Of a stretch of 37,684 nt of DNA, positions 9,656 through 37,313 are shown piece after piece (position 1 is the first letter of the stretch; every line of letters starts with the position of its first letter). The position numbers were made by a program, and so were the translations under genes. This DNA is from an uncultured Candidatus Saccharibacteria bacterium (GTDB lineage: Bacteria > Patescibacteriota > Minisyncoccia > Phycocordibacterales > WO2-35-19). The notes under the pieces were generated by a model. That model was not told the DNA's origin and made no database searches. It saw only the letters and a program-made list of their open reading frames with translations. The DNA lies in contig CAYICK010000001.1 in assembly GCA_964361905.1 (NCBI GenBank), positions 1 through 37,684 of the forward strand, written 5' to 3'.

Positions 9656-11356
9656 ATGTATCCTGAAAATAAAATTACATACTTTGCCGAGACCGATGCG
9701 CGCAACAAGCGAGTTAAGTTTGGTATCAAGGCCGAAGATAGACTTAGGCATATTTACTCCATCGGGAAAACAGGTATGGGTAAGTCCACAATGTTAGAGA
9801 ATATGGCTATTCAAGATATTCAAAATGGCGAGGGTATGGCATTTTTAGATCCGCATGGATCAACCGCTGATAAATTACTTGATTATGTTCCGGAAGAGAG
9901 GATAAAAGATGTTATTTATTTCGCCCCTTTTGATATTGAACATCCAATCGCTTTTAATGTTATGGAAGATGTGGGTCCGGAAAGGCGGCATCTTGTCGTC
10001 TCGGGGCTTATGAGCGCTTTCGAGAAATCATTCGGAGAAGAAAGTTTTTCCGACCGTATGCAGTATATTTTGCAAAATACTATATTGGCTCTTTTGGAAT
10101 ATCCGGGAGCGACGATGCTTGGTATAAACAGGATGCTTTCCGACAAAGTTTACCGCAATAATGTGATTGCCAATATTACCGACCCGTCGGTCAAAAATTA
10201 TTGGACCAAAGAATATGCGGGTTATACCGAAAGATTCGCGGCCGAAGCTATACCGGCCATCCAAAACAAAATCGGTCAGTTCACTTCCAATCCTTTAATC
10301 AGAAACATTATCGGCCAACCGAAATCGTCTTTTGATATGAGGAAAATAATGGATGACAAGAAAATTCTCATTGTAAACTTATCCAAAGGCCTGGTAGGAG
10401 AGGGCAACGCAAATTTGTTGGGTTCAATGATTGTCACTAAAATGTATCTGGCCGCTATGTCTCGTGCTGATGCTGACCCGAAAGAGTTGAAAAAATTACC
10501 AAACTTTTATTTATATGTAGATGAATTCCAATCTTTTGCAAACAAAAGCTTTGCCGACATTTTGTCAGAGGCCAGGAAATACAAATTGAGTTTAAATATT
10601 ACTCACCAATACATTGAGCAGATGGCCGATGAGGTGCGAGCAGCGGTGTTTGGCAACGTGGGCACAATGATTGCTTTTCGTGTCGGCTCGTTCGATGCTG
10701 AAGTGCTGGAGAAAGAGTTTGCTCCGGTGTTTACTATGGAAGATATTGTTAATCTGGGATTTGTGCAAATTTATCTCAAACTTATGATTGACGGAGTAGC
10801 ATCCCAACCATTTTCGGCTACTACTTTGCCGCCAGCTCCAAAACCAGAGATTTCCTTCAGAGGGCAAGTGGTAGAAATGTCCCGCAAAGATTTTACCAAA
10901 CCGAAAGCAGAAGTGGAAAAAGCTATAGCAGACTGGCACGAACCGGAAGTGAAAGTAGCAAGTAGCAAGCAGCCAGTAGCAAGGGTAGAAACTAAACCAG
11001 AAATAAAATTAGAACCAAAATCGGAATATAAACCCAGGGAACAAAATTTTGAAAAGCCCAAACCTGATCAACCCAAGTTTCAACAGCAACCTCAGAGTAA
11101 ACCTGTTTTGGCTAAAGCAATAGAGGAAGCGGTGAAGCATAGAAATGAATCAAATGAACCGAAAAAAGAAACAATATCCTTAAATCAACTTAAACCAAAC
11201 ATTGAAAAAAGTAGAAATAAAGAGGTGTCGCCGGAACACAAAAATGCTCTTAAAGAAGCGATAGAGAAAGCAAAACTCAACGAACCGATAAAAGCGGAAG
11301 AAAAAAACAAAGAAGTGCCGGAAGAAACTTTACGTGAAATTCTGAAAGGCGAATAG
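9656..11356 (+). CDS. TraD/TrwB/VirD4-family (type IV coupling-protein-like) P-loop ATPase, soluble, with a disordered Lys/Glu/Pro-rich C-terminal tail
   Basis: 566 aa. Walker A GKTGMGKST, FLDPHG and Walker B FYLYVDEFQSFA, then ARKYKLSLNITHQYIEQM (TraG-D_C-like). There is no N-terminal TM segment. The last ~170 aa are low complexity. Confidence 0.75.
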   Translation: MYPENKITYFAETDARNKRVKFGIKAEDRLRHIYSIGKTGMGKSTMLENMAIQDIQNGEGMAFLDPHGSTADKLLDYVPEERIKDVIYFAPFDIEHPIAFNVMEDVGPERRHLVVSGLMSAFEKSFGEESFSDRMQYILQNTILALLEYPGATMLGINRMLSDKVYRNNVIANITDPSVKNYWTKEYAGYTERFAAEAIPAIQNKIGQFTSNPLIRNIIGQPKSSFDMRKIMDDKKILIVNLSKGLVGEGNANLLGSMIVTKMYLAAMSRADADPKELKKLPNFYLYVDEFQSFANKSFADILSEARKYKLSLNITHQYIEQMADEVRAAVFGNVGTMIAFRVGSFDAEVLEKEFAPVFTMEDIVNLGFVQIYLKLMIDGVASQPFSATTLPPAPKPEISFRGQVVEMSRKDFTKPKAEVEKAIADWHEPEVKVASSKQPVARVETKPEIKLEPKSEYKPREQNFEKPKPDQPKFQQQPQSKPVLAKAIEEAVKHRNESNEPKKETISLNQLKPNIEKSRNKEVSPEHKNALKEAIEKAKLNEPIKAEEKNKEVPEETLREILKGE

Positions 11357-15891: not shown

Positions 15892-17420
15892 AAGTTATAT
15901 CAATAGGCACGGATAGGAAAATATTTGAAAAAAATTCTGATGTTCAGCAAAGGCTTATAGAATATGGGAAATTTTTTGATGAAATGCACGTGATTGTATT
16001 TAACAAACGAGACACGAAGAATGAGATAAAAATTACGAAAATAAGTGAAAATGTTTGGGCCCATCCAACAAACTCAAACAGCAAGCTGTTTTATGTTTGG
16101 GATGCATTTAAAATCTGCAAAAAAGTTTATAGTAATGATTTCATAGTAACTGTAGGCGATTCTTTTGAAACAGGTATGGTTGGTGTTTTGACAAAACTTT
16201 TTTTAGGGTTGCCTCTTCATGTACAAGTGCACACCGATTTGATGCATAAGTATTTTAGAAACTTGTCTGTTTTAAACAAGCTTCGTTTTTTTGTGTCCGA
16301 ATTTGTTTTAAGATACGCCGATAGGGTGAGAGTAGTTTCAGAAAGGATCAAGCAGTCCATAGAACAATTTTCCAAAAATATTGATGTCTTGCCTATACAA
16401 ACAAAATTGAAAGAAGAAAAGATTGAAAGATTGAAAGATTGGGAAAACATAAAAAATATTCTGACAGTGTGCAGATTGGAAAAAGAAAAAAATTTAGAAA
16501 CAGCAATTAAAGCTTTCAAAACTATTTCTGAAAAATTTCCAGAGGCCGTCTTTGCAATTGTTGGTGATGGTAGTGAACGAGAAAATCTTGAAAAATTTGT
16601 AGTAAAATTGGGATTGGAAAACAAAGTGGTTTTTGCTGGATGGCGAGACGATTTGGAAAAATATTATAGAAACGCGGATATTTACATTTCAACTTCTTTG
16701 TACGAGGGGTACGGTATTTCAACTGTAGAGGCTGCTTATTTTGGAAAGCCCTTAATTCTTTCCGAAACTGGAGTGGCCGGAGAAATTTTCAAAGATGGGG
16801 AGTCGGCTTTGGTTTGTGATGCTAAAGATACGGCTTGTTTTGCTAAAAATATTTTAAAAATTTATCAAAACAAAAATTTAGCTCAAAAAATGGGACAATC
16901 TGCAAAATTAGCAGCAGATAAACATTTAAATTCGGGAGTAAATTATTTCAGAGAATATGCCGATTCTGTTTTAAAAACAGCTGAAAGTTTCAAGAAAAGA
17001 GGTTTTGTTGCAAGGTTTCTTGATTTCAAAAAAACATTTTGGCATTCCTTCATATTTTTACGTTATTTGGTTTGCGGAGTTACTGCGGCGGTTGTAAATA
17101 TAAGCTCACTTTATGTTTTTACGGAAACTGCAGGTATCTGGTACCTGTATTCTTCTATTTTAGCGTTCTTTTTGGCTCTTATCGTAAGTTTCTCACTGCA
17201 GAAATTTGTGGTTTTTAAGGATAATGGAATGGAAAAAATGCATCATCAGTTTTCCAAATTCTTTGTAATCGCGGTTTTGGGGGTGGCGACGAACACTATT
17301 TTGGTGTTTGTTTGTGTTGAAGCTTTGGGTGTTTGGTATATTTTGTCGCAAATAATTGCTGGTATTTTCGTAATGTTCCAAAATTTCGCCTTTTACAAAC
17401 TTTTTATATTTAATAAATAA
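15888..17420 (+). CDS. Fusion protein: GT4 glycosyltransferase (aa 1-~370) + GtrA-like 4-TM domain (aa ~385-510)
   Basis: GT4 motifs CRLEKEKNLETAIKAF and STSLYEGYGISTVEAAYFGKPLILSETGVAGEIF. The C-terminal FLRYLVCGVTAAVVNISSLYVFTE plus three further hydrophobic helices match the GtrA family pattern. Confidence 0.8.
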   Translation: MKVISIGTDRKIFEKNSDVQQRLIEYGKFFDEMHVIVFNKRDTKNEIKITKISENVWAHPTNSNSKLFYVWDAFKICKKVYSNDFIVTVGDSFETGMVGVLTKLFLGLPLHVQVHTDLMHKYFRNLSVLNKLRFFVSEFVLRYADRVRVVSERIKQSIEQFSKNIDVLPIQTKLKEEKIERLKDWENIKNILTVCRLEKEKNLETAIKAFKTISEKFPEAVFAIVGDGSERENLEKFVVKLGLENKVVFAGWRDDLEKYYRNADIYISTSLYEGYGISTVEAAYFGKPLILSETGVAGEIFKDGESALVCDAKDTACFAKNILKIYQNKNLAQKMGQSAKLAADKHLNSGVNYFREYADSVLKTAESFKKRGFVARFLDFKKTFWHSFIFLRYLVCGVTAAVVNISSLYVFTETAGIWYLYSSILAFFLALIVSFSLQKFVVFKDNGMEKMHHQFSKFFVIAVLGVATNTILVFVCVEALGVWYILSQIIAGIFVMFQNFAFYKLFIFNK

Positions 17421-17423
17421 TAA

Positions 17424-18458
17424 ATGAGACTTTTAATTATTACTCAAAAAGTTGATAAAGAAGATCCGATTTTGGGCTTTTTCCATAATTGGATTCTGGA
17501 GCTTTCAAAAAAATTTGAAAAAATATCAGTTATTTGCCTGGAAAAGGGGAATTATAATCTACCCCAAAATGTCAGAGTATTTTCTTTGGGTAAAGAATCC
17601 GGCAGAAGCAAAATAAAATATGTAAATAATTTTCTAAATTTAATTCTTGGCTTACATAAAGAGTATGATTCTGTTTTTGTGCATATGAACCAAGAGTATA
17701 TTTTGCTGGGCGGATTTATCTGGAAAATTTTGAGAAAGAAAATTTATTTTTGGCGTAATCATCAATATGGAAATTTGTTGACCCAAATTGCCATCTGGTT
17801 TTCTAATAAAGTCTTTTACACTTCCAAATTTGCTTTTGTAACTAGATACAAAAAAGCATCTGTTATGCCGGTGGGTGTGGACATTGAAAGTTTTAAAGTT
17901 TTAAAGATTGAAAGATTAAAAAACTCAATTTTGTTTTTGGGTAGGATTGGCACCATCAAAAAACCGGACATTTTAATTGAAGCATTGGATATATTAAATA
18001 AAAAAAGAATTGATTTTAATTGCGATTTTTATGGAGATCCGCAATCGAAGGACGAAGAATACTATAATTTTCTAAAAAACAAAATTAAAGAATTTGGATT
18101 AAATAATAGGGTTAATTTCTATAAAGCGGTGCCAAATTATGAGACGCCAAAAATTTATAATGAACACGAAATTTTTGTTAATCTCACACCAACTGGTAGT
18201 TTTGATAAAACTATTTTAGAAGCGGCTGCTTGCGGCTGCATACCGATTATTGCAAATGAATCACTATCGGGAGAAATAGATAAAAGAATGATTTTAGAGA
18301 ACGACAAACCGGAGAGTGTTGCAAAAACAATAGAATTTTGGCTCAATGTAAGCAATGAAGAAAGAGTTGAAGCTTCAAAAAAACTCCAAAAATACGTTTT
18401 GGAAAATCACAGTTTAAGTGCTTTAATTGAAAGGCTATGTATCACAATAAAAAAATAA
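17424..18458 (+). CDS. GT-B fold glycosyltransferase, family 4-like
   Basis: 344 aa. Motifs ILFLGRIGTIKKPDILIEAL and FDKTILEAAACGCIPIIANE. Confidence 0.8.
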   Translation: MRLLIITQKVDKEDPILGFFHNWILELSKKFEKISVICLEKGNYNLPQNVRVFSLGKESGRSKIKYVNNFLNLILGLHKEYDSVFVHMNQEYILLGGFIWKILRKKIYFWRNHQYGNLLTQIAIWFSNKVFYTSKFAFVTRYKKASVMPVGVDIESFKVLKIERLKNSILFLGRIGTIKKPDILIEALDILNKKRIDFNCDFYGDPQSKDEEYYNFLKNKIKEFGLNNRVNFYKAVPNYETPKIYNEHEIFVNLTPTGSFDKTILEAAACGCIPIIANESLSGEIDKRMILENDKPESVAKTIEFWLNVSNEERVEASKKLQKYVLENHSLSALIERLCITIKK

Positions 18459-32348: not shown

Positions 32349-33470
32349 ATGAAATTTGCCTACATCGCAAATACCGGATTAGCCAACGAATGGGCGCATT
32401 CGGTCCAAATAATGAACATGTGCAAAGCCTTTAGTGATATAGGCGCGGATATAACACTTGTGGTTCCAAAAAGGAGTTTTTTAAAGGAAGACCCGTTTGA
32501 ATATTATAAAATACATAAAACTTTTTCTATAAAAAAATTACCCTGTATTGATTTGCTGGTTGGCAGCCCGCACCCGCTTTTCTACTGGCTTCGATTAGTT
32601 TCTTTTTATATTTCAGCTAGATTTTATATATGGTTTAAGCATTTTGATATCCTGTACTCCAGAGATTTGTATTCAGCATTATTTTTTCCGGGCATTATTT
32701 TGGAACAGCATTCGTTCCCAAAGGAAATATCGCTCCAACATAAATTTATGTTTTCTTTGGCAGAAAAGCTGGTAGTGCTCACTTCGTTTATAAAGGATAG
32801 ATTTGTTACTGTAGGTGTGCTGGCCGGCAAAATCCTCGTTGCCTCTGACGGGGTGGATTTGGATAAGTTTAAAAATTATTCCAGCCACTTTGAAATCGGA
32901 GGCCTTTCGGAAAAAGATTTTGTGTATGGTTACATAGGCACATTAAAAACTATGGGCACAGAAAAGGGAGTAGCCGATGGCCTGCAGGCCCTCAAAAAAC
33001 TTCCATCGGAGTATAAATTTTTAGTTATAGGAGGTGAAAAACCGGACGTTGAGTATTATAAAGACATGTCTCTTAAATTAGGCGTTTTCGGCAGGGCGAT
33101 TTTTATCGGCCAGGTTGCTTATTCCGATATTCCAAAATATGCTTCAAAATGCGATGCGCTCATCGCGCCTTTTCCAAAGAATGAACATTATAGTTTTTAT
33201 ATGTCACCACTCAAAATTTTTGAATATATGGCCGGTAAAAAGCCTATTATAACTACGGATTTGCCATCGCTTAAAGAAGTGCTAACTGACGGAAAAAACG
33301 CTCTGTTGGTGCCTCCTGGCGATCCACAGGCTCTGGCAGACGCCATTATAAAAATCAAAGGAAATCCCGAATATGGCAAGAAACTGGCTGAGAGGGCTTA
33401 CCGGGACGTATCGGAAAAATATACTTGGAAAACAAGGGCAGAAAAAATTATCTCGTTTATACAATCTTAA
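32349..33470 (+). CDS. GT-B fold glycosyltransferase, family 4-like
   Basis: 373 aa. Motifs YIGTLKTMGTEKGV and SPLKIFEYMAGKKPIITTDLPSLKEVL. Confidence 0.82.
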   Translation: MKFAYIANTGLANEWAHSVQIMNMCKAFSDIGADITLVVPKRSFLKEDPFEYYKIHKTFSIKKLPCIDLLVGSPHPLFYWLRLVSFYISARFYIWFKHFDILYSRDLYSALFFPGIILEQHSFPKEISLQHKFMFSLAEKLVVLTSFIKDRFVTVGVLAGKILVASDGVDLDKFKNYSSHFEIGGLSEKDFVYGYIGTLKTMGTEKGVADGLQALKKLPSEYKFLVIGGEKPDVEYYKDMSLKLGVFGRAIFIGQVAYSDIPKYASKCDALIAPFPKNEHYSFYMSPLKIFEYMAGKKPIITTDLPSLKEVLTDGKNALLVPPGDPQALADAIIKIKGNPEYGKKLAERAYRDVSEKYTWKTRAEKIISFIQS

Positions 33471-34171
33471 TTAATAAGTGAATACAACCTGTCAGAAATT
33501 TTTTGCAGATTTTCAAAATTAAACTCCCGTCTCTGGTCGGTGGTTTTTTTGTTTTTACATATGAGGAGAACGTGGCGGTTCTGAGAGCGGAACGAACAAG
33601 TTAGATATTCAAGTCGGCTCAAAAACCATGAGAAAATCCTGAAAGGCAAAAGATTGGCTATAGGATGCGAACCGAGATAACCGTTCTGCTCAAAAAAGCG
33701 CTCATATATAAAACTTATGAAATTTCTGTAATATATTTTTTTAACGTAGTTAAAATTATTCTCTAACAGTTTTAATTCTTCGCCAAAATCGTCAGACAAA
33801 GATAATTCACAAATGAAATTACCCTGAGGAGTCGTAATTCGCGAAAGCCCAGAGATTGCCCGAAGTCTCCTTTGAGGCGGTAAGTAATTGAGAGTATTTG
33901 TTGAAACAACGACGTCTATGCTATTTCCCGCAACAGCGTCGAGATTTGCTATATCAGCATGCAAGCCGAGAGTTTTGGAGTCAGGGTATTTTTTAAGGCC
34001 GATTTCAAGTGATGCTCGATCAATATCAAGCCCGATATACACATCGGTCTTAAACATATGCCTATTTTTCATCCCGGCAGAAGCTGCATCCAAACCGACC
34101 CCGCTTTTTATTTTGGAAAGTTCTTTTTGCAAAACCGGAAAGATAAAATTTTTTGAAGGCCTTGTATACAT
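33467..34171 (-). CDS. Class I SAM-dependent methyltransferase
   Basis: 234 aa. Motifs GVGLDAASAG, VYIGLDID and IDVVVSTNTLNYL. Its 3' end overlaps the convergent GT4 gene by 4 nt. Confidence 0.72.
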   Translation of the reverse strand: MYTRPSKNFIFPVLQKELSKIKSGVGLDAASAGMKNRHMFKTDVYIGLDIDRASLEIGLKKYPDSKTLGLHADIANLDAVAGNSIDVVVSTNTLNYLPPQRRLRAISGLSRITTPQGNFICELSLSDDFGEELKLLENNFNYVKKIYYRNFISFIYERFFEQNGYLGSHPIANLLPFRIFSWFLSRLEYLTCSFRSQNRHVLLICKNKKTTDQRREFNFENLQKISDRLYSLIN

Positions 34172-34302
34172 TTATTTAAATATTACCCCGATTCCGGCCC
34201 AATTTTGGTTAGGATTTTCAATTAATTCTTTGTAATTTTTTCCAACTTTAACTTCGTCCCAAAATTTATCCGCATCGCATCTCTCTTTGTGTTTGCAAAC
34301 AT
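34172..34302 (-). pseudogene. Relic 3' end of a methyltransferase gene (copy 1 of a 131-bp direct repeat)
   Basis: 122 of 131 nt are identical, without indels, to 35805-35935. On the minus strand it translates to VCKHKERCDADKFWDEVKVGKNYKELIENPNQNWAGIGVIFK-stop. A TAG lies upstream in frame and there is no start codon. Its TAA abuts the ATG of the 33467-34171 gene. Confidence 0.85.
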
Positions 34303-34313
34303 TTATTGTTTTA

Positions 34314-35699
34314 TTAATTAACTATGAAATAACTCAGACAAGCCTTGTTTTTAGAAACATTAGCACTGGATTTTATAGTAAAACTTGTACCTGCTGTGCG
34401 GGAATTTACACTGTAATTACGATTCGTTCCTGTGTTACAAGTGATTTCCAAGCGCGAACTGAGAGATGAGTCTTCTGTGATAAATATCTGACTATTTGCG
34501 GTCACAGCGGTTGTATCTACAACTAGAGTACTACCACCTGTATCCATCGCCACATTTCCAGCGGAAGCCGAACCACAAACCGCAGGTGATGCGGTTGAGG
34601 CACAATTTGAATTTGTACTCATACTATTAGCAGAAATATTGCCATTCACATCGAGGGTGGCTACTGGTGTGCTTGTTCCAATGCCAACCCTGCTGTTAAT
34701 TATCATGTTTTGTCCAGAGCGACCGAAAGTCATTGTCGTTGTCAGAGATGTTCCAAAATTAAGCGCTCCGTTTGTTATTGAATCAATCATTCCCCCTACT
34801 TGCATTAGCAGATTACCAGACGTAAGAGCGACATTGGAGCCATCATCTGACAGTAAAGAATCACCTATTACTAATGCACCGGTAAATTTTACGATTCTGT
34901 TTGTTGTCCCTGATCCAGTAACTGAATAAGTCGGGGGAGTCGGTGTTGAATTAAATGGATATGAAAGTCCTGCACTGTCGTTATAAAGCGCTGTTACCTC
35001 AGTTGGGGTTAACACCCTATGCCAAAAACCCACTTCATCTATTGAACCATCAAAATCGTACGGAGCCCAAGTTAAATCACCCCCCACAAGAAAGGCCGAA
35101 CTCGTTTGACCTATACTAGTTGCTGTTCCGCTTTTTGCGGACATACTTTGTGCTACCCCATTTTTATAAATAATTCCGCCTGTTGCAGAACTTGAGTCTA
35201 ATGTCCAAACTAAATGAACCCAGGTGCCAATATCTGAACTGGTTAAAAGATTGGTTGCGTACCATTGACCATAATCATCGCCATTGTAAAAGGTTGCATA
35301 AGCATTTGGGGGTTGGAGGTTCAATATGTAGGAATTTCCATTGACATCTGATTTGCGGATGAGCTCATATACCACCGAAGGAACTGAAGCCAGTTTCACC
35401 CACATTGAGACCGAAAAGACATCTGTCATCCCCAACCCTATTTGAGCGGCATCGGTAATAGAAAAATACTGATTACTAGCATTAATCAAATTTGTTGCAT
35501 TATTTATTTTTCCAGCACTAAATCCCACCGAATTATTGTTAGTTAAATTGTTTGAACCAACACTGTCGGTAGTATTTCCTGATGATTCGTCAAATTTCCA
35601 ATACGAGACCAAATTGTCAGTGAGCGCCGCTGATGCTGAAACAGGAAGAACAGCTAAAACAAAAAGCGCTAATGGCACGAAAACAGTTAATTTCTTCAT
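34314..35699 (-). CDS. Secreted LamG (concanavalin-A-like lectin) domain protein with a Ser/Thr/Gly/Asn-rich fibre-like C-terminal half
   Basis: 461 aa with signal peptide MKKLTVFVPLALFVLAVLPVSASA. LamG_3-type motifs LVSYWKFDESSGNTTDSVGSNNLT and GSIDEVGFWHRVLTPTEVTALY. The C-terminal half contains VGIGTSTPVATLDVNGN and four Cys. Confidence 0.85.
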   Translation of the reverse strand: MKKLTVFVPLALFVLAVLPVSASAALTDNLVSYWKFDESSGNTTDSVGSNNLTNNNSVGFSAGKINNATNLINASNQYFSITDAAQIGLGMTDVFSVSMWVKLASVPSVVYELIRKSDVNGNSYILNLQPPNAYATFYNGDDYGQWYATNLLTSSDIGTWVHLVWTLDSSSATGGIIYKNGVAQSMSAKSGTATSIGQTSSAFLVGGDLTWAPYDFDGSIDEVGFWHRVLTPTEVTALYNDSAGLSYPFNSTPTPPTYSVTGSGTTNRIVKFTGALVIGDSLLSDDGSNVALTSGNLLMQVGGMIDSITNGALNFGTSLTTTMTFGRSGQNMIINSRVGIGTSTPVATLDVNGNISANSMSTNSNCASTASPAVCGSASAGNVAMDTGGSTLVVDTTAVTANSQIFITEDSSLSSRLEITCNTGTNRNYSVNSRTAGTSFTIKSSANVSKNKACLSYFIVN

Positions 35700-35752
35700 A
35701 AATTTAATATTAAAGTTCTATTAAGCATAGTTAATTTTAATAGACCCCAGAC

Positions 35753-35760
35753 ATTATACA
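35753..35760 (-). promoter_or_regulatory. Candidate extended -10 box (TGTATAAT on the minus strand) for the LamG gene
   Basis: The reverse complement of 35753-35760 reads TGTATAAT. It lies about 54 nt upstream of the ATG at 35699. A TTGACT (35785-35790) is also present but is 26 bp away. Confidence 0.3.
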
Positions 35761-35804
35761 ACTTAATATGGTGTATAAAAAAGGAGTCAATCGATTTTTG
35801 GCAA

Positions 35805-35935
35805 TTATTTGAATATTACCCCGATTCCGGCCCAATTTTGATTAGGATTTTCAATTAATTCTTTGCAATTCTTGCCAACTTTAATTTCGTCCCAAAATTT
35901 ATCCGCATCGCATCTTTCTCTGTGTTTGCACACAT
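35805..35935 (-). repeat. Copy 2 of the 131-bp direct repeat (functional 3' end of the 502-aa methyltransferase gene)
   Basis: Offset is exactly 1633 nt from copy 1, with 9 mismatches (6 synonymous, 3 non-synonymous in the shared frame). Confidence 0.9.
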
Positions 35936-37313
35936 CATGGAAAGCGATTATCCCCCCCTTTTTTACCAGAGGCGAGTATAGCTCATAATCTTGCTTAACA
36001 CCTTCATAACTGTGGTCGCCGTCTATGAAAAGAAAATCTATTTCTTTGTTTTTCGTTGTACTTTTTAACAGTTCAACGGTTTCTTTTTTGTGAGAATCTT
36101 TTCGCAGAAGCGTCATTTTTTGAAGAGGGGATTTAAACTTTTTGTACAATGACTCGGCCAACTTCGCATAGAATCCTCCAGAAGCCCCCTTTGGCAGATC
36201 TATGCTGATTATGTTTGCATTCGGGGAAACAAAACGCGAAAAAAGAAAAAGCGATCCTCCTGTAGCCGTGCCTATTTCCAGTACTGTTTTGGGTTGGGCT
36301 TTCTCCACAATTTCGCACAAACCACTTATCTCCGAGCGCACTTGCTGAGGGGCAAATATGCGCCCAAATCCATCAAATATTAAACTAATCGCCGAAGGTA
36401 TGCTGTGTTTCTTGGCAGCTTCTTTTGGGAGTTTCCAGCTTGCATACGGGTATACTAATATCCTCACGGCGCGTTTTTCCCAGAGGGTATAAAACTCCCT
36501 CAATTTTATAAAGAAAGGCTTAAATCCTTCATGTGTCAATACATACCAAGCTCTATAAATTTTTTTAATTAAACTTTTAATTGGTTTTGGTAGATTTTTT
36601 GATAGAGAATACAATTTATACATTGTGTATTTAAAAAACATATATAGCAAACAAATTTTATTGTTCAATCTGTCGATCCAAGAATTTCTAACGCATTTTG
36701 TGGCATACGTAATACTTCCCACGATACCGATGTTTTTAAACTCCAGAGATTTGAAAATATATTTTTCCACAACTTTTCTTGGTCCGGGTATTCCTGAAAC
36801 CAGGAGGCTCTTGAATATAGTTTGAAGATTTGGAGCGGTATCGTGAAAAGCGATCACTCCGCCGGGGATAAGATGGGGAGAATAAAGCAGGAAATCTTTT
36901 TCCGCACCCTCATATTCGTGGGCACCATCGATAAAAAGAAATTCTATGGGTTTATTCCAATCTTTTGCCGCCATTTCAGAAGTAGAGACTACTGGCGTAA
37001 CTACGTCTTGAACTCCAGCTTTATTTATATTGTTCTTAAAATCTGTCAAAGTAGAATCTCCGTGGTCCCTCAGACCGTCGCTTCCGGCAAACGGGTCAAT
37101 GGCGTAAACTCTTCCTGCCGAGCCGTCCTTTATCCCTTGAGCAATCCAAATCGTTGACTTGCCTTTCCAAGAACCGATCTCTACGACACACCCTTTTCCC
37201 GTCACATTTTTGGCGCAATGATAGAGAAATATCAACTCATTGGATCCAACCCAACCTTGCACCAATTTGGTCTGCTCCTCCAGTTGCTCAATTATTTTTT
37301 CTTTATTGCTCAT
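35805..37313 (-). CDS. Tandem two-domain class I SAM-dependent methyltransferase (two Methyltransf_24-like domains)
   Basis: 502 aa. Domain 1 has VVEIGSWKGKSTIWIA and FLFIDGAHEYEGAEKDFLLYSPHLIPGGVIAFHD. Domain 2 has VLEIGTATGGSLFLFS and FLFIDGDHSYEGVKQDYELYSPLVKKGGIIAFHD. Confidence 0.8.
   Translation of the reverse strand: MSNKEKIIEQLEEQTKLVQGWVGSNELIFLYHCAKNVTGKGCVVEIGSWKGKSTIWIAQGIKDGSAGRVYAIDPFAGSDGLRDHGDSTLTDFKNNINKAGVQDVVTPVVSTSEMAAKDWNKPIEFLFIDGAHEYEGAEKDFLLYSPHLIPGGVIAFHDTAPNLQTIFKSLLVSGIPGPRKVVEKYIFKSLEFKNIGIVGSITYATKCVRNSWIDRLNNKICLLYMFFKYTMYKLYSLSKNLPKPIKSLIKKIYRAWYVLTHEGFKPFFIKLREFYTLWEKRAVRILVYPYASWKLPKEAAKKHSIPSAISLIFDGFGRIFAPQQVRSEISGLCEIVEKAQPKTVLEIGTATGGSLFLFSRFVSPNANIISIDLPKGASGGFYAKLAESLYKKFKSPLQKMTLLRKDSHKKETVELLKSTTKNKEIDFLFIDGDHSYEGVKQDYELYSPLVKKGGIIAFHDVCKHRERCDADKFWDEIKVGKNCKELIENPNQNWAGIGVIFK

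Follow-up and report, generated by a model that had tools for sequence, protein, structure and literature searches.

The 37.7-kb window, that is, the whole stretch of DNA analysed here, has 29 main ORFs and carries a glycan cluster with glycosyltransferases, methyltransferases, B12-radical SAM enzymes, PMT_2 proteins, an aminotransferase and an epimerase. The locus under study consists of two methyltransferase genes, the gene of a LamG protein between them and two copies of a methyltransferase gene end around the latter, in the order MT502, spacer, LamG, 11 nt, remnant, MT234. Its parts are the following:

35805..37313, minus strand: MT502, 502 aa, with two Methyltransf_24 / CmcI-type SAM-methyltransferase domains; its last 131 nt are repeat copy 2
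35805..35935, minus strand: repeat copy 2, the functional 3′ end of MT502 (2 nt, 42 codons and TAA)
35700..35804, minus strand: spacer of 105 nt, AT-rich (24.8% GC), upstream of LamG
34314..35699, minus strand: LamG gene, coding for a 461-aa secreted protein with a predicted signal peptide
34303..34313, minus strand: 11-nt gap from the LamG stop to the relic
34172..34302, minus strand: repeat copy 1 (the remnant), an MT502-type 3′ end whose own TAA abuts the ATG of MT234
33467..34171, minus strand: MT234, a 234-aa class I SAM methyltransferase (Methyltransf_11/25, Pfam)
32349..33470, plus strand: GT373, a GT4 glycosyltransferase, convergent with MT234 and overlapping it by 4 nt

MT502 matches Pfam PF13578 twice, as well as PF04989 and PF01596, and has 6g7d and 3r3h as relatives in the PDB; its two domains are 34% identical to each other. 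The LamG protein carries a ConA-like / Laminin_G_3 jelly roll (Pfam, approximately residues 30–245), and its AlphaFold2 model (mean pLDDT 73) also has a low-confidence linker and a small C-terminal beta domain (365–461, K1-lyase_C-like). Foldseek matches were lectin-like neurotoxin Hc domains and domain 4 of AbnA (5hon). Promoter-like boxes had been proposed upstream of this gene from the sequence alone: a perfect TATAAT is indeed present in the spacer at 35758–35753, but the −35 element is weak and a consensus promoter scan gave no minus-strand promoter there. As had also been noticed, no integrase or transposase is present, nor any other recombinase domain, among the 29 main ORFs of the window. 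The cassette ends show no terminal or significant inverted repeats and no integron, IS or terminator signatures, and an Rfam search matched rRNA alone.

The two copies (34172–34302 and 35805–35935) lie on the same strand and in the same frame and align without gaps, with 122 of 131 nt identical and an offset of 1,633 nt; realignment bore out the coordinates, identity and offset first read from the sequence alone. In a repeat search the pair grows to 134 nt at 93%, 3 nt longer (34169–34302 / 35802–35935), and BLAST E-values for it range from 7e-51 to 3e-50. No other repeat of comparable size and quality exists in the window according to a whole-window repeat scan, and no third copy was found, whether tblastn was run with the relic peptide or with the C-terminal domain of MT502. 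Copy 2 is the 3′ end of MT502, as claimed, but comprises 42 whole codons, the stop and 2 nt of the preceding codon rather than 43 codons; similarly, the copies enclose the LamG gene and its 105-nt upstream region but not only these, since the 11 nt at 34303–34313 lie between them as well. The nine differences are 7 transitions and 2 transversions, and a recheck returned the same split into six synonymous changes, all at third codon positions, and three replacements (K/R, V/I, Y/C). The longest identical run is 30 nt, with three perfect runs of 24–30 nt. When a crossover was placed in silico anywhere in the repeat, exactly 1,633 bp were lost and an intact 502-aa ORF was joined by TAAATG onto MT234, so the predicted restoration of a methyltransferase–methyltransferase junction holds for every crossover point, as a matter of geometry only.

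The reading-frame check agrees with what had been said of copy 1: the frame is kept, it has no start (neither ATG, GTG nor TTG), an in-frame TAG lies 7 codons upstream (the translation reads stop-LINKTIN/VCKH...) and the terminal TAA does abut the ATG of the 234-aa methyltransferase. Judged by its frame, copy 1 cannot be translated; it is the non-coding remainder of an MT502-type 3′ end, and very probably what is left of a second MT502-type gene end. The relic is 93% identical to the last 42 codons of MT502. In an alignment of 30 homologues, read by eye, each of the three replacements is conservative and hits a position that varies, and the remnant still has the conserved C, W and W-x-GIG residues. 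Two candidate functions were rejected. A structured RNA is contradicted by a z of +0.53, not above shuffles, and a role as Shine-Dalgarno donor for MT234 by the genes of the window, which are essentially without SD motifs, and by the position of the relic's GGGG, 14 nt from the ATG. The remnant does nothing now.

Such a fragment has good precedents. Like the wzy remnants of Salmonella O-antigen clusters (groups B1 and D1; PMC3715488), it is a truncated, untranslatable gene fragment between intact genes of a mosaic glycan cluster, and it records an older gene order at a junction whose gene content varies among relatives. Unlike them, it has its functional counterpart 1.6 kb away in the same orientation, which makes a direct repeat around one gene, and its junction is without an IS or H-repeat element.

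Nucleotide divergence between the copies is about 7%, with a dS of about 0.35; replacement-site divergence is 0.029 versus 0.277 at synonymous sites (pN/pS approximately 0.10). The test for synonymous excess, which has nine differences in total to work with, rejects an all-neutral divergence (P of at most 3 replacements = 0.010). The same probability is 0.60–0.90 if both copies were coding and 0.06–0.11 if the relic decayed in place with MT502 under selection, the latter not being rejected at 5%, and the likelihood ratio is approximately 3 in favour of both copies coding. The sequence-only reading had taken the excess of synonymous changes to mean that both copies were coding beforehand; this stands against fully neutral divergence, but in-place decay is only weakly disfavoured. 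We consider it probable that most of the divergence arose while both copies were coding, either in separate lineages or as paralogs.

The same arrangement occurs in four independent contigs from the same groundwater samples (L001–L004), which come from two ENA assemblies and one Logan assembly. L002 (9,695 nt) spans both copies, L001 covers copy 2 and both its flanks, and L003 and L004 do the same for copy 1. We rejected strain polymorphism or gene conversion within the repeats, the contigs being identical there and mismatches with the window being confined to contig ends. An assembly artefact, in which two strains were joined chimerically via the common 131 nt, could appeal to the low coverage of the short contigs (2–4x). 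Against it, four contigs from three assemblies agree and one of them spans both copies, which carry 9 fixed differences and identical runs of at most 30 nt; furthermore, a k-mer chimera is implausible because the LamG/relic joint has just 2 nt in common with MT502, and no shared k-mer. The chance of such an artefact is negligible.

MT502 is an isolated protein: its best match among 5.8 billion proteins has 45% identity over half its length, and none exceeds approximately 50%. Searches with MT502 in GTDB genomes returned no empty site or second full-length copy. The exact 28-mer and 30-mer common to both copies matched the same-sample contig alone in metagenome, viral and genome collections, and a degenerate pattern for the tail (...W[AG]GIG[VI]IFK) matched unrelated phyla only in GTDB. 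No donor arrangement, second MT502 allele or alternative cassette behind an MT502-type gene was found either, MT502 relatives all being below about 50% identity, and the assembled contigs, all of the integrated form, contain no circle junction. That the searched collections hold no empty site, second copy or circle junction is explained by this lack of relatives above approximately 50%, which leaves the negative result for the empty site without power.

MT234 has relatives at 84, 81, 67 and 63% identity, and nine distinct related loci carry a homologue (L009 duplicates L006), none with an MT502-like neighbour. L006, L007 and L008 each have a different gene upstream of MT234. Nucleotide homology between the window and L006 stops 6 nt upstream of the MT234 ATG, and the gene meets its upstream neighbour by TAAATG in L007 and by a 10-nt overlap in L006. 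MT234 and GT373 form a conserved two-gene module in L006 (79% nt) and L007, with different flanks. Since the upstream gene is different in each relative, the MT234 start is a recurrent synteny breakpoint in a mosaic glycan cluster. No flanking repeats surround the MT234 genes of L006 and L007 or the LamG gene of L020.

We hypothesize that the present order came from recombination between two diverged versions of one surface-glycan cluster (about 7% nucleotide divergence, dS about 0.35), the first holding MT502′-spacer-LamG and the second MT502-MT234. An MT502-type gene would once have stood directly before MT234, with a TAAATG stop-start junction, and copy 1 would be its last 131 nt. The simplest route is a single homologous crossover. 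A circular or circularised DNA of 1,633 bp, made of the 131-nt MT502′ tail, the spacer, LamG and the 11 nt, would cross over once with the 3′ end of the resident MT502; the 131 nt would be duplicated, MT502 would stay intact and MT234 would keep its native upstream sequence. One repeat edge would fall exactly on a gene boundary because homology between the two versions ends at the MT502 stop codon. The other, at 34302/34303, would be a single, putatively illegitimate joint 11 nt past the LamG stop, and the alignment has a 2-nt “AT” microhomology with MT502 at the corresponding position. We infer, rather than observe, that there were two coding lineages, which way the event ran and that a circle came in between; the repeat, the state of copy 1, the geometry, the breakpoint at the MT234 start and the lack of recombinase genes are observed.

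As in Campbell-type integration, the insert is bracketed by an in-register direct duplication of the target-homologous segment. When a plasmid of one-sided homology was used in E. coli, single crossovers accounted for 56 of 60 recombinants and had duplicated 109–950 bp of the homologous segment (PMC3240628), a range that brackets our 131 bp. Suicide-plasmid and circularised-fragment integrants of this kind likewise have a direct duplication flanking the insert, need no site-specific recombinase, and are reversed by homologous recombination with exact restoration of the target. Unlike them, our locus belongs to an uncultured Parcubacteria genome and has no known circular form, vector backbone or empty site, and the 7% divergence of its repeats implies that the donor was not identical or that the event is of considerable age. 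Patescibacteria are documented to be naturally competent (PMC10633639). On the other side of the balance, a 1.6-kb circle of exactly this fragment needs an illegitimate end-joining step of its own, and the crossover must fall within 131 bp at 93% identity with perfect runs of at most 30 nt, both steps being rare; neither the empty site, the donor arrangement, the circle junction nor a second MT502 allele is present in the collections searched. The Campbell-type integration put forward in the sequence-only reading thus has the geometry and an experimental precedent in its favour, but the breakpoint at the MT234 start and the habitual presence of LamG genes in glycan clusters shift the emphasis: a foreign cassette on a small circle is only one of three routes with the same end state, and public data cannot show how the scar formed. 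We adopt the Campbell-type route, specifically, as a tentative choice.

Two of these three routes dispense with the circle. A second full-length copy may have been deleted, in which case an order MT502a, LamG, MT502b, MT234, with copies about 93% identical (paralogs, or one of them acquired), would have lost the first ~1,375 nt of MT502b (a stretch running from 11 nt past the LamG stop up to codon 459) and kept the 131-nt tail. The end state is identical, with one deletion joint at 34302/34303, and the coding-type divergence is accounted for. Given the deletion bias of small, streamlined genomes, a redundant copy is likely to be lost. The Salmonella O-antigen clusters, moreover, offer well-documented cases of serially deleted gene remnants (PMC3715488). 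However, more steps are required, as some prior event must have made two MT502 copies flanking LamG; two 1.5-kb direct repeats at 93% would be unstable; and no two-copy genome or second MT502 allele was found in the collections searched. We rate this deletion as rather unlikely, and as slightly less likely again an exchange between cluster versions by HFIR (one-sided, homology-facilitated illegitimate recombination) or unequal crossover. Here, a long linear fragment (..., MT502′, spacer, LamG) with its end 11 nt past LamG would recombine by homology at some upstream point while its far end joins the resident MT502 illegitimately at codon 460, so that the first 459 codons of the resident gene are replaced and its tail is left; alternatively, the MT234-GT373 block would have been imported and brought along 131 nt of the gene that used to be next to it. 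In favour of this explanation, the joint has only 2-nt microhomology, and MT234-GT373 behaves as a module in L006 (79% nt) and L007 while the flanks differ. HFIR in naturally transformable bacteria combines one homology-limited boundary with one joint of minimal microhomology, which the locus, with its 2 nt, may resemble, and PMC10633639 documents competence for Patescibacteria; transformation, here a conjectural route, can also produce duplications via alternative repeat pairing (PMC3784515). The “AT” joint at 34302/34303 with the other edge at the stop codon is compatible with such a two-joint event but non-specific to it. Classical HFIR, however, deletes recipient DNA, whereas here the homologous anchor is duplicated, so the comparison holds only if the resident gene body was the replaced part, and not DNA farther downstream. 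One would also expect strand exchange to carry on across the homologous 131 nt as far as the stop codon and not to end at codon 459, and in the E. coli system true HFIR made up 4 of 60 recombinants versus 56 of 60 single crossovers with duplication (PMC3240628).

The remaining explanations do without a second gene lineage or give the repeats a purpose. The 131-nt tail could have been duplicated in place, as a by-product of LamG insertion or by replication slippage, with subsequent neutral decay of the untranslated copy. At most 3 replacements in 9 would then be seen with P = 0.06–0.11, no stop codon after 9 random changes with P = 0.64, and a second MT502 lineage is in fact unseen in protein data. 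Nevertheless, replacement divergence (0.029) is about one tenth of the synonymous (0.277), with conservative replacements at variable positions, and 131 neutral nt free of indels at a dS of about 0.35 would be unexpected for a compact genome. A target duplication of 131 bp in the absence of a recombinase matches no known insertion mechanism, and the 29 main ORFs encode no recombinase. In-place duplication is accordingly improbable. Still more so, in our view, is a repeat pair maintained for function, with RecA-type recombination switching LamG out and in for surface heterogeneity or as an integrase-free mobile cassette. The geometry is perfect for damage-free loss, the three perfect runs measure 24–30 nt, and LamG-type proteins have been proposed as attachment mediators in Patescibacteria (PMC12911398). 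However, the four contigs all show the occupied form and the protein collection has no recombined MT502 variant; active recombination or conversion would homogenise repeats that are 7% diverged; and L020, the sole LamG relative with scannable flanking DNA, has no such repeats.

Known mobile systems share traits with the locus in that a single promoter-bearing gene sits between two genes, with direct repeats around it. Unlike integron cassettes, IS and transposons, the locus lacks an integrase, attC, a transposase and terminal inverted repeats, and a 131-bp, 7%-diverged repeat is far longer than target-site duplications of IS and transposons (2–14 bp). We accordingly rejected an integron cassette (no IntI or recombinase in the 29 ORFs, no attC and no significant inverted repeat at the ends, rRNA alone in Rfam) and an IS or transposon insertion (no transposase, no terminal inverted repeats, a repeat of 131 bp). 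The tandem lpl paralogs of S. aureus, whose evolutionary unit comprises the 3′ end of an ORF, the intergenic region and the next ORF (PMC2568036), are similar in that here, too, the stretch kept together, the MT502 tail and MT234, crosses a gene boundary and does not follow ORF limits; there, recombination is repeated among tandem paralogs, whereas here we see a single scar between unrelated genes.

In the boldest reading, the 131-nt methyltransferase tail, spacer and LamG would together make a self-propagating, recombinase-free mobile cassette. With the illegitimate joint in place, homologous recombination between the repeats would free a 1.6-kb circle, which could be taken up and re-inserted by single crossover in any related genome with the MT502 tail, and Patescibacteria could in this way swap or switch a surface lectin-like protein inside their glycan clusters. 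We regard this as highly improbable. Overall, the locus is a known kind of recombination scar, real but ordinary, and reveals no new mechanism, gene remnants and insertion-duplications being well known from O-antigen/capsule loci and from laboratory single-crossover integration. Its practical effect is to place the gene of a lectin-fold secreted protein, with its own AT-rich upstream region, inside a methyltransferase operon. We see it as a clean, datable footprint of how surface-glycan clusters of uncultured groundwater Parcubacteria may be rebuilt one gene at a time when diverged lineages recombine by homology, with breakpoints at gene boundaries and mobile-element enzymes not involved, and it offers background on surface variation in ultra-small episymbionts.

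As to LamG itself, a foreign origin by composition was rejected, with GC, GC3, synonymous codon usage and tetranucleotides all non-diagnostic. The gene has 41.1% GC versus 38.2% for the window and the largest tetranucleotide distance among the 29 genes, but its product is a secreted protein rich in Ser/Thr/Gly/Asn, so this deviation is not diagnostic; the earlier view that composition does not settle the origin was right in its conclusion, although a deviation does exist. A phage origin was also rejected: IMG/VR relatives match the LamG domain only, with 42% identity at best, and the one PHROGs match is a weak hit to a structural protein. LamG relatives are usual residents of such glycan clusters, and in L020 the gene lies there without flanking repeats; LamG therefore need not be a foreign cassette, and the secreted lectin-fold protein may be seen as a regular, movable member of these clusters.

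A 131-bp direct repeat brackets the gene of a secreted lectin-like protein, LamG (461 aa). Aligned within the window, 34172–34302 (copy 1) and 35805–35935 (copy 2) agree ungapped at 122/131 positions with an offset of 1,633 nt (BLAST E-values 7e-51 to 3e-50), exactly where the sequence-only reading had placed them. A repeat scan found no other long repeat across the 37,684-nt window, and a peptide-level search found no third copy. From MT502 to MT234, everything lies on the minus strand, and the order along that strand is the following:

minus strand, first in order, before MT502: a 97-aa ORF
35805–37313, minus strand, second in order: MT502, a 502-aa double methyltransferase
105 nt, 24.8% GC: spacer between MT502 and LamG
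34314–35699, minus strand: LamG gene
11 nt: joint segment between LamG and the remnant
34302–34172, minus strand: remnant of an MT502-type gene end (copy 1)
34171–33467, minus strand: MT234, a 234-aa methyltransferase, with a 4-nt overlap with the convergent GT4 glycosyltransferase gene

Copy 2 is the working 3′ end of MT502, namely its final 42 codons plus the stop (42 whole codons by alignment, not the 43 first counted). Copy 1 is still in frame and ends in the TAA, yet lacks a start codon, carries an in-frame TAG 7 codons upstream and abuts the MT234 ATG with its TAA, all as described from the sequence. The nine differences, six synonymous (third-position) and three replacements (K/R, V/I, Y/C), were likewise reproduced. 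LamG and the 105-nt spacer had been said to be the only contents between the copies; both are there, together with the overlooked 11-nt joint segment. As for promoter-like boxes, the spacer holds a perfect TATAAT (35758–35753) without a convincing −35. The observation is correct, while the interpretation given to the repeat is plausible but unproven.

Four independent contigs from Hainich H43 groundwater (two ENA assemblies and one Logan assembly) reproduce the arrangement, one of them across both copies, with mismatches to the window confined to contig ends; this agreement rules out an assembly artefact, to which we give a negligible chance. Among JGI metagenome contigs, the sole MT502 match is a same-sample contig, and a second MT502 allele is absent from the indexed assemblies of these samples.

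The contig is chromosomal, since the window begins with the 3′ end of a 23S rRNA gene (1–229) and a complete 5S rRNA gene (496–601), directly upstream of VWA/FtsW genes and the glycan cluster. Most of the remaining window is this one large glycan-biosynthesis cluster, with GT4 and GT2 glycosyltransferases, several methyltransferases, three B12-binding radical-SAM enzymes, three PMT_2 proteins, a DegT aminotransferase and an epimerase/dehydratase fusion. Domain annotation of the 29 main ORFs found no integrase, transposase or other recombinase domain, in agreement with the earlier statement on the first two. The defining features of an integron cassette and of an IS/transposon insertion were tested and are absent, so the structure is neither of these. 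Because the closest relative of MT234 (84% identity) belongs to a Candidatus Zambryskibacteria MAG, the organism belongs to the Parcubacteria/Paceibacteria-type Patescibacteria.

LamG has a signal peptide, a Laminin_G_3/ConA-like jelly roll (residues about 30–245), a low-confidence linker and a small C-terminal beta domain matching K1-lyase_C. In structural comparison its model (mean pLDDT 73) comes closest to the lectin-like domain found in the receptor-binding fragments of clostridial neurotoxins, and it also resembles carbohydrate-binding domain 4 of the AbnA arabinanase (5hon, target-normalised TM-score 0.75). Relatives at 39–44% identity occur in three other Parcubacteria contigs (L020, 6001–7491; L028, 6001–7389; JGI 3300071358), all embedded in glycan clusters between glycosyltransferase and methyltransferase genes, and at L020 and on the JGI contig the gene runs in the same direction as its neighbours, from which spacers of 60–105 nt separate it. 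LamG is therefore a habitual cluster member rather than obviously foreign cargo. Flanking repeats are absent at L020, the only one of these loci with scannable DNA. No sign of a phage origin was found, and composition is uninformative on origin, as had been anticipated. Attachment is thought to be mediated by LamG-type proteins (PMC12911398); the recurrent association of a predicted secreted lectin-fold protein with glycan clusters may mean that it is a glycosylation substrate or glycan-binding partner of the cluster. The C-terminal ~200 residues (about 250–461; 34314–35050) are 55–77% identical to many Parcubacteria proteins that differ in their N-terminal domain (Gly-rich PF21722, SPRY, pectate-lyase-like), so that a conserved C-terminal module is combined with shuffled N-terminal binding domains.

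Among 5.8 billion proteins, none is related to MT502 at more than about 50% identity, and GTDB species representatives and IMG/VR contain no relative either; the best match, at 45% over half the length, is with proteins of about 280 aa that have a single domain. Internally, MT502 repeats the Methyltransf_24 domain in tandem, with just 34% identity between the two domains, and nearly all database relatives, single-domain and about 280 aa long, match the C-terminal half. At L006, a relative's locus (84% amino acid, 79% nucleotide identity), MT234 and the convergent glycosyltransferase are both kept, and an unrelated 416-aa GT overlaps the MT234 start by 10 nt. At L007 (63%) an Epimerase_2 gene is joined by TAAATG, and at L008 (67%) yet another GT precedes. 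An MT502-like neighbour is found at 0/9 distinct MT234-bearing loci (L009 being a duplicate of L006). Nucleotide homology with L006 covers 32849–34177, ending 6 nt before the MT234 ATG. The upstream gene thus differs from relative to relative, and synteny breaks repeatedly at the 5′ edge of MT234. As a rule MT234 is joined tightly to whichever gene precedes it, and the remnant points to an MT502-type gene as its former neighbour in this lineage. MT234 and the convergent GT4 gene form a conserved two-gene module with variable outer flanks, their 3′ ends overlapping by 4 to 12 nt in three genomes (window, 33467–33470; L006, 10701–10711; L007, 8691–8702).

Nothing in the sequence suggests a functional remnant. 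Its translation is impossible, its fold is no better than shuffles (z = +0.53), and retention as a ribosome-binding site was rejected, genes here being essentially devoid of Shine-Dalgarno motifs. Since a terminator scan found none after LamG, MT234 is probably co-transcribed with it.

The structure could have arisen from two cluster versions, one carrying MT502′-spacer-LamG and the other MT502-MT234. One repeat edge is the MT502 stop codon, as expected if homology between the versions ends there; the other breaks off sharply, with 2 nt of microhomology, and so indicates an illegitimate joint. Three routes would lead to this same structure. Ranked first, at somewhat below an even chance, is the Campbell topology, in which a circular DNA of 1.6 kb enters by a single crossover. 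Wherever in the repeat the crossover was placed in silico, 1,633 bp were lost and the 502-aa ORF stayed whole, joined by TAAATG to MT234, which bears out the claim that recombination restores the methyltransferase junction. In an E. coli system for detecting homology-facilitated illegitimate recombination (HFIR), 56/60 recombinants were instead single crossovers duplicating 109–950 bp of the homologous segment (PMC3240628), so a 131-bp duplication is a typical single-crossover footprint. It is rather unlikely that most of a second full-length MT502 copy was deleted, a route for which the serially deleted gene remnants common in Salmonella O-antigen clusters (PMC3715488) are a precedent. Exchange of a longer fragment, homologous on one side and illegitimate on the other, or import of the MT234-GT373 block (GT373 being the convergent GT4 gene) with a hitch-hiking tail, we consider unlikely. 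Programmed or otherwise functional excision is highly improbable.

Duplication of the tail in place followed by neutral decay, which we hold very unlikely, bears on whether copy 1 was once coding. With 21.7 synonymous and 104.3 non-synonymous sites, pS is 0.277 and pN 0.029 (ratio 0.10). Given transitions and transversions in the observed ratio of 7:2, a count of at most three replacements has P = 0.010 if all nine changes were neutral, P = 0.06–0.11 if the remnant decayed in place beside a constrained MT502, and P = 0.60–0.90 if both copies were constrained (omega 0.1–0.2), a likelihood ratio of about 3 for two coding lineages. The argument from synonymous excess thus holds against all-neutral change and falls short of clearly excluding in-place decay. 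Read by eye, the three replacements are conservative and at positions variable among 30 homologues, and the remnant retains conserved Cys, Trp and W-x-GIG residues. That both copies evolved as coding sequence is a reasonable but weak conclusion. A pS of 0.28 corresponds to a dS of about 0.35 (Jukes-Cantor). Such a distance implies either a donor from a clearly diverged lineage or a paralog that is old.

The structure behaves as a Campbell-type integrant would, and at the same time it is a gene remnant lying at a block junction in a mosaic polysaccharide cluster; both are already known kinds. Classical HFIR fits only in part, since here the event doubled the anchor instead of deleting recipient DNA. 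Patescibacteria are a group with demonstrated natural competence (PMC10633639). The case, of modest scientific weight, adds a further example from an uncultured Patescibacteria genome and records a secreted protein with a lectin fold as one of the cluster's movable parts.

Shine-Dalgarno motifs are almost absent window-wide (e.g., genes starting at 750, 9656 and 22152), and at several first-in-operon genes a TATAAT ends 7–11 nt before the ATG, a spacing that suggests leaderless mRNAs. The 566-aa protein adjoining the cluster (9656–11356) gives weak matches to TraG/TrwB (type IV coupling protein); a conjugation-type T4SS has been described in Patescibacteria (PMC12102498). Two adjacent GT4 glycosyltransferase genes share an imperfect 8-nt tandem array, (ATTGAAAG) × about 4.5, at 16406–16441 and 17883–17921, 1,477 nt apart and with a unit length not divisible by 3.
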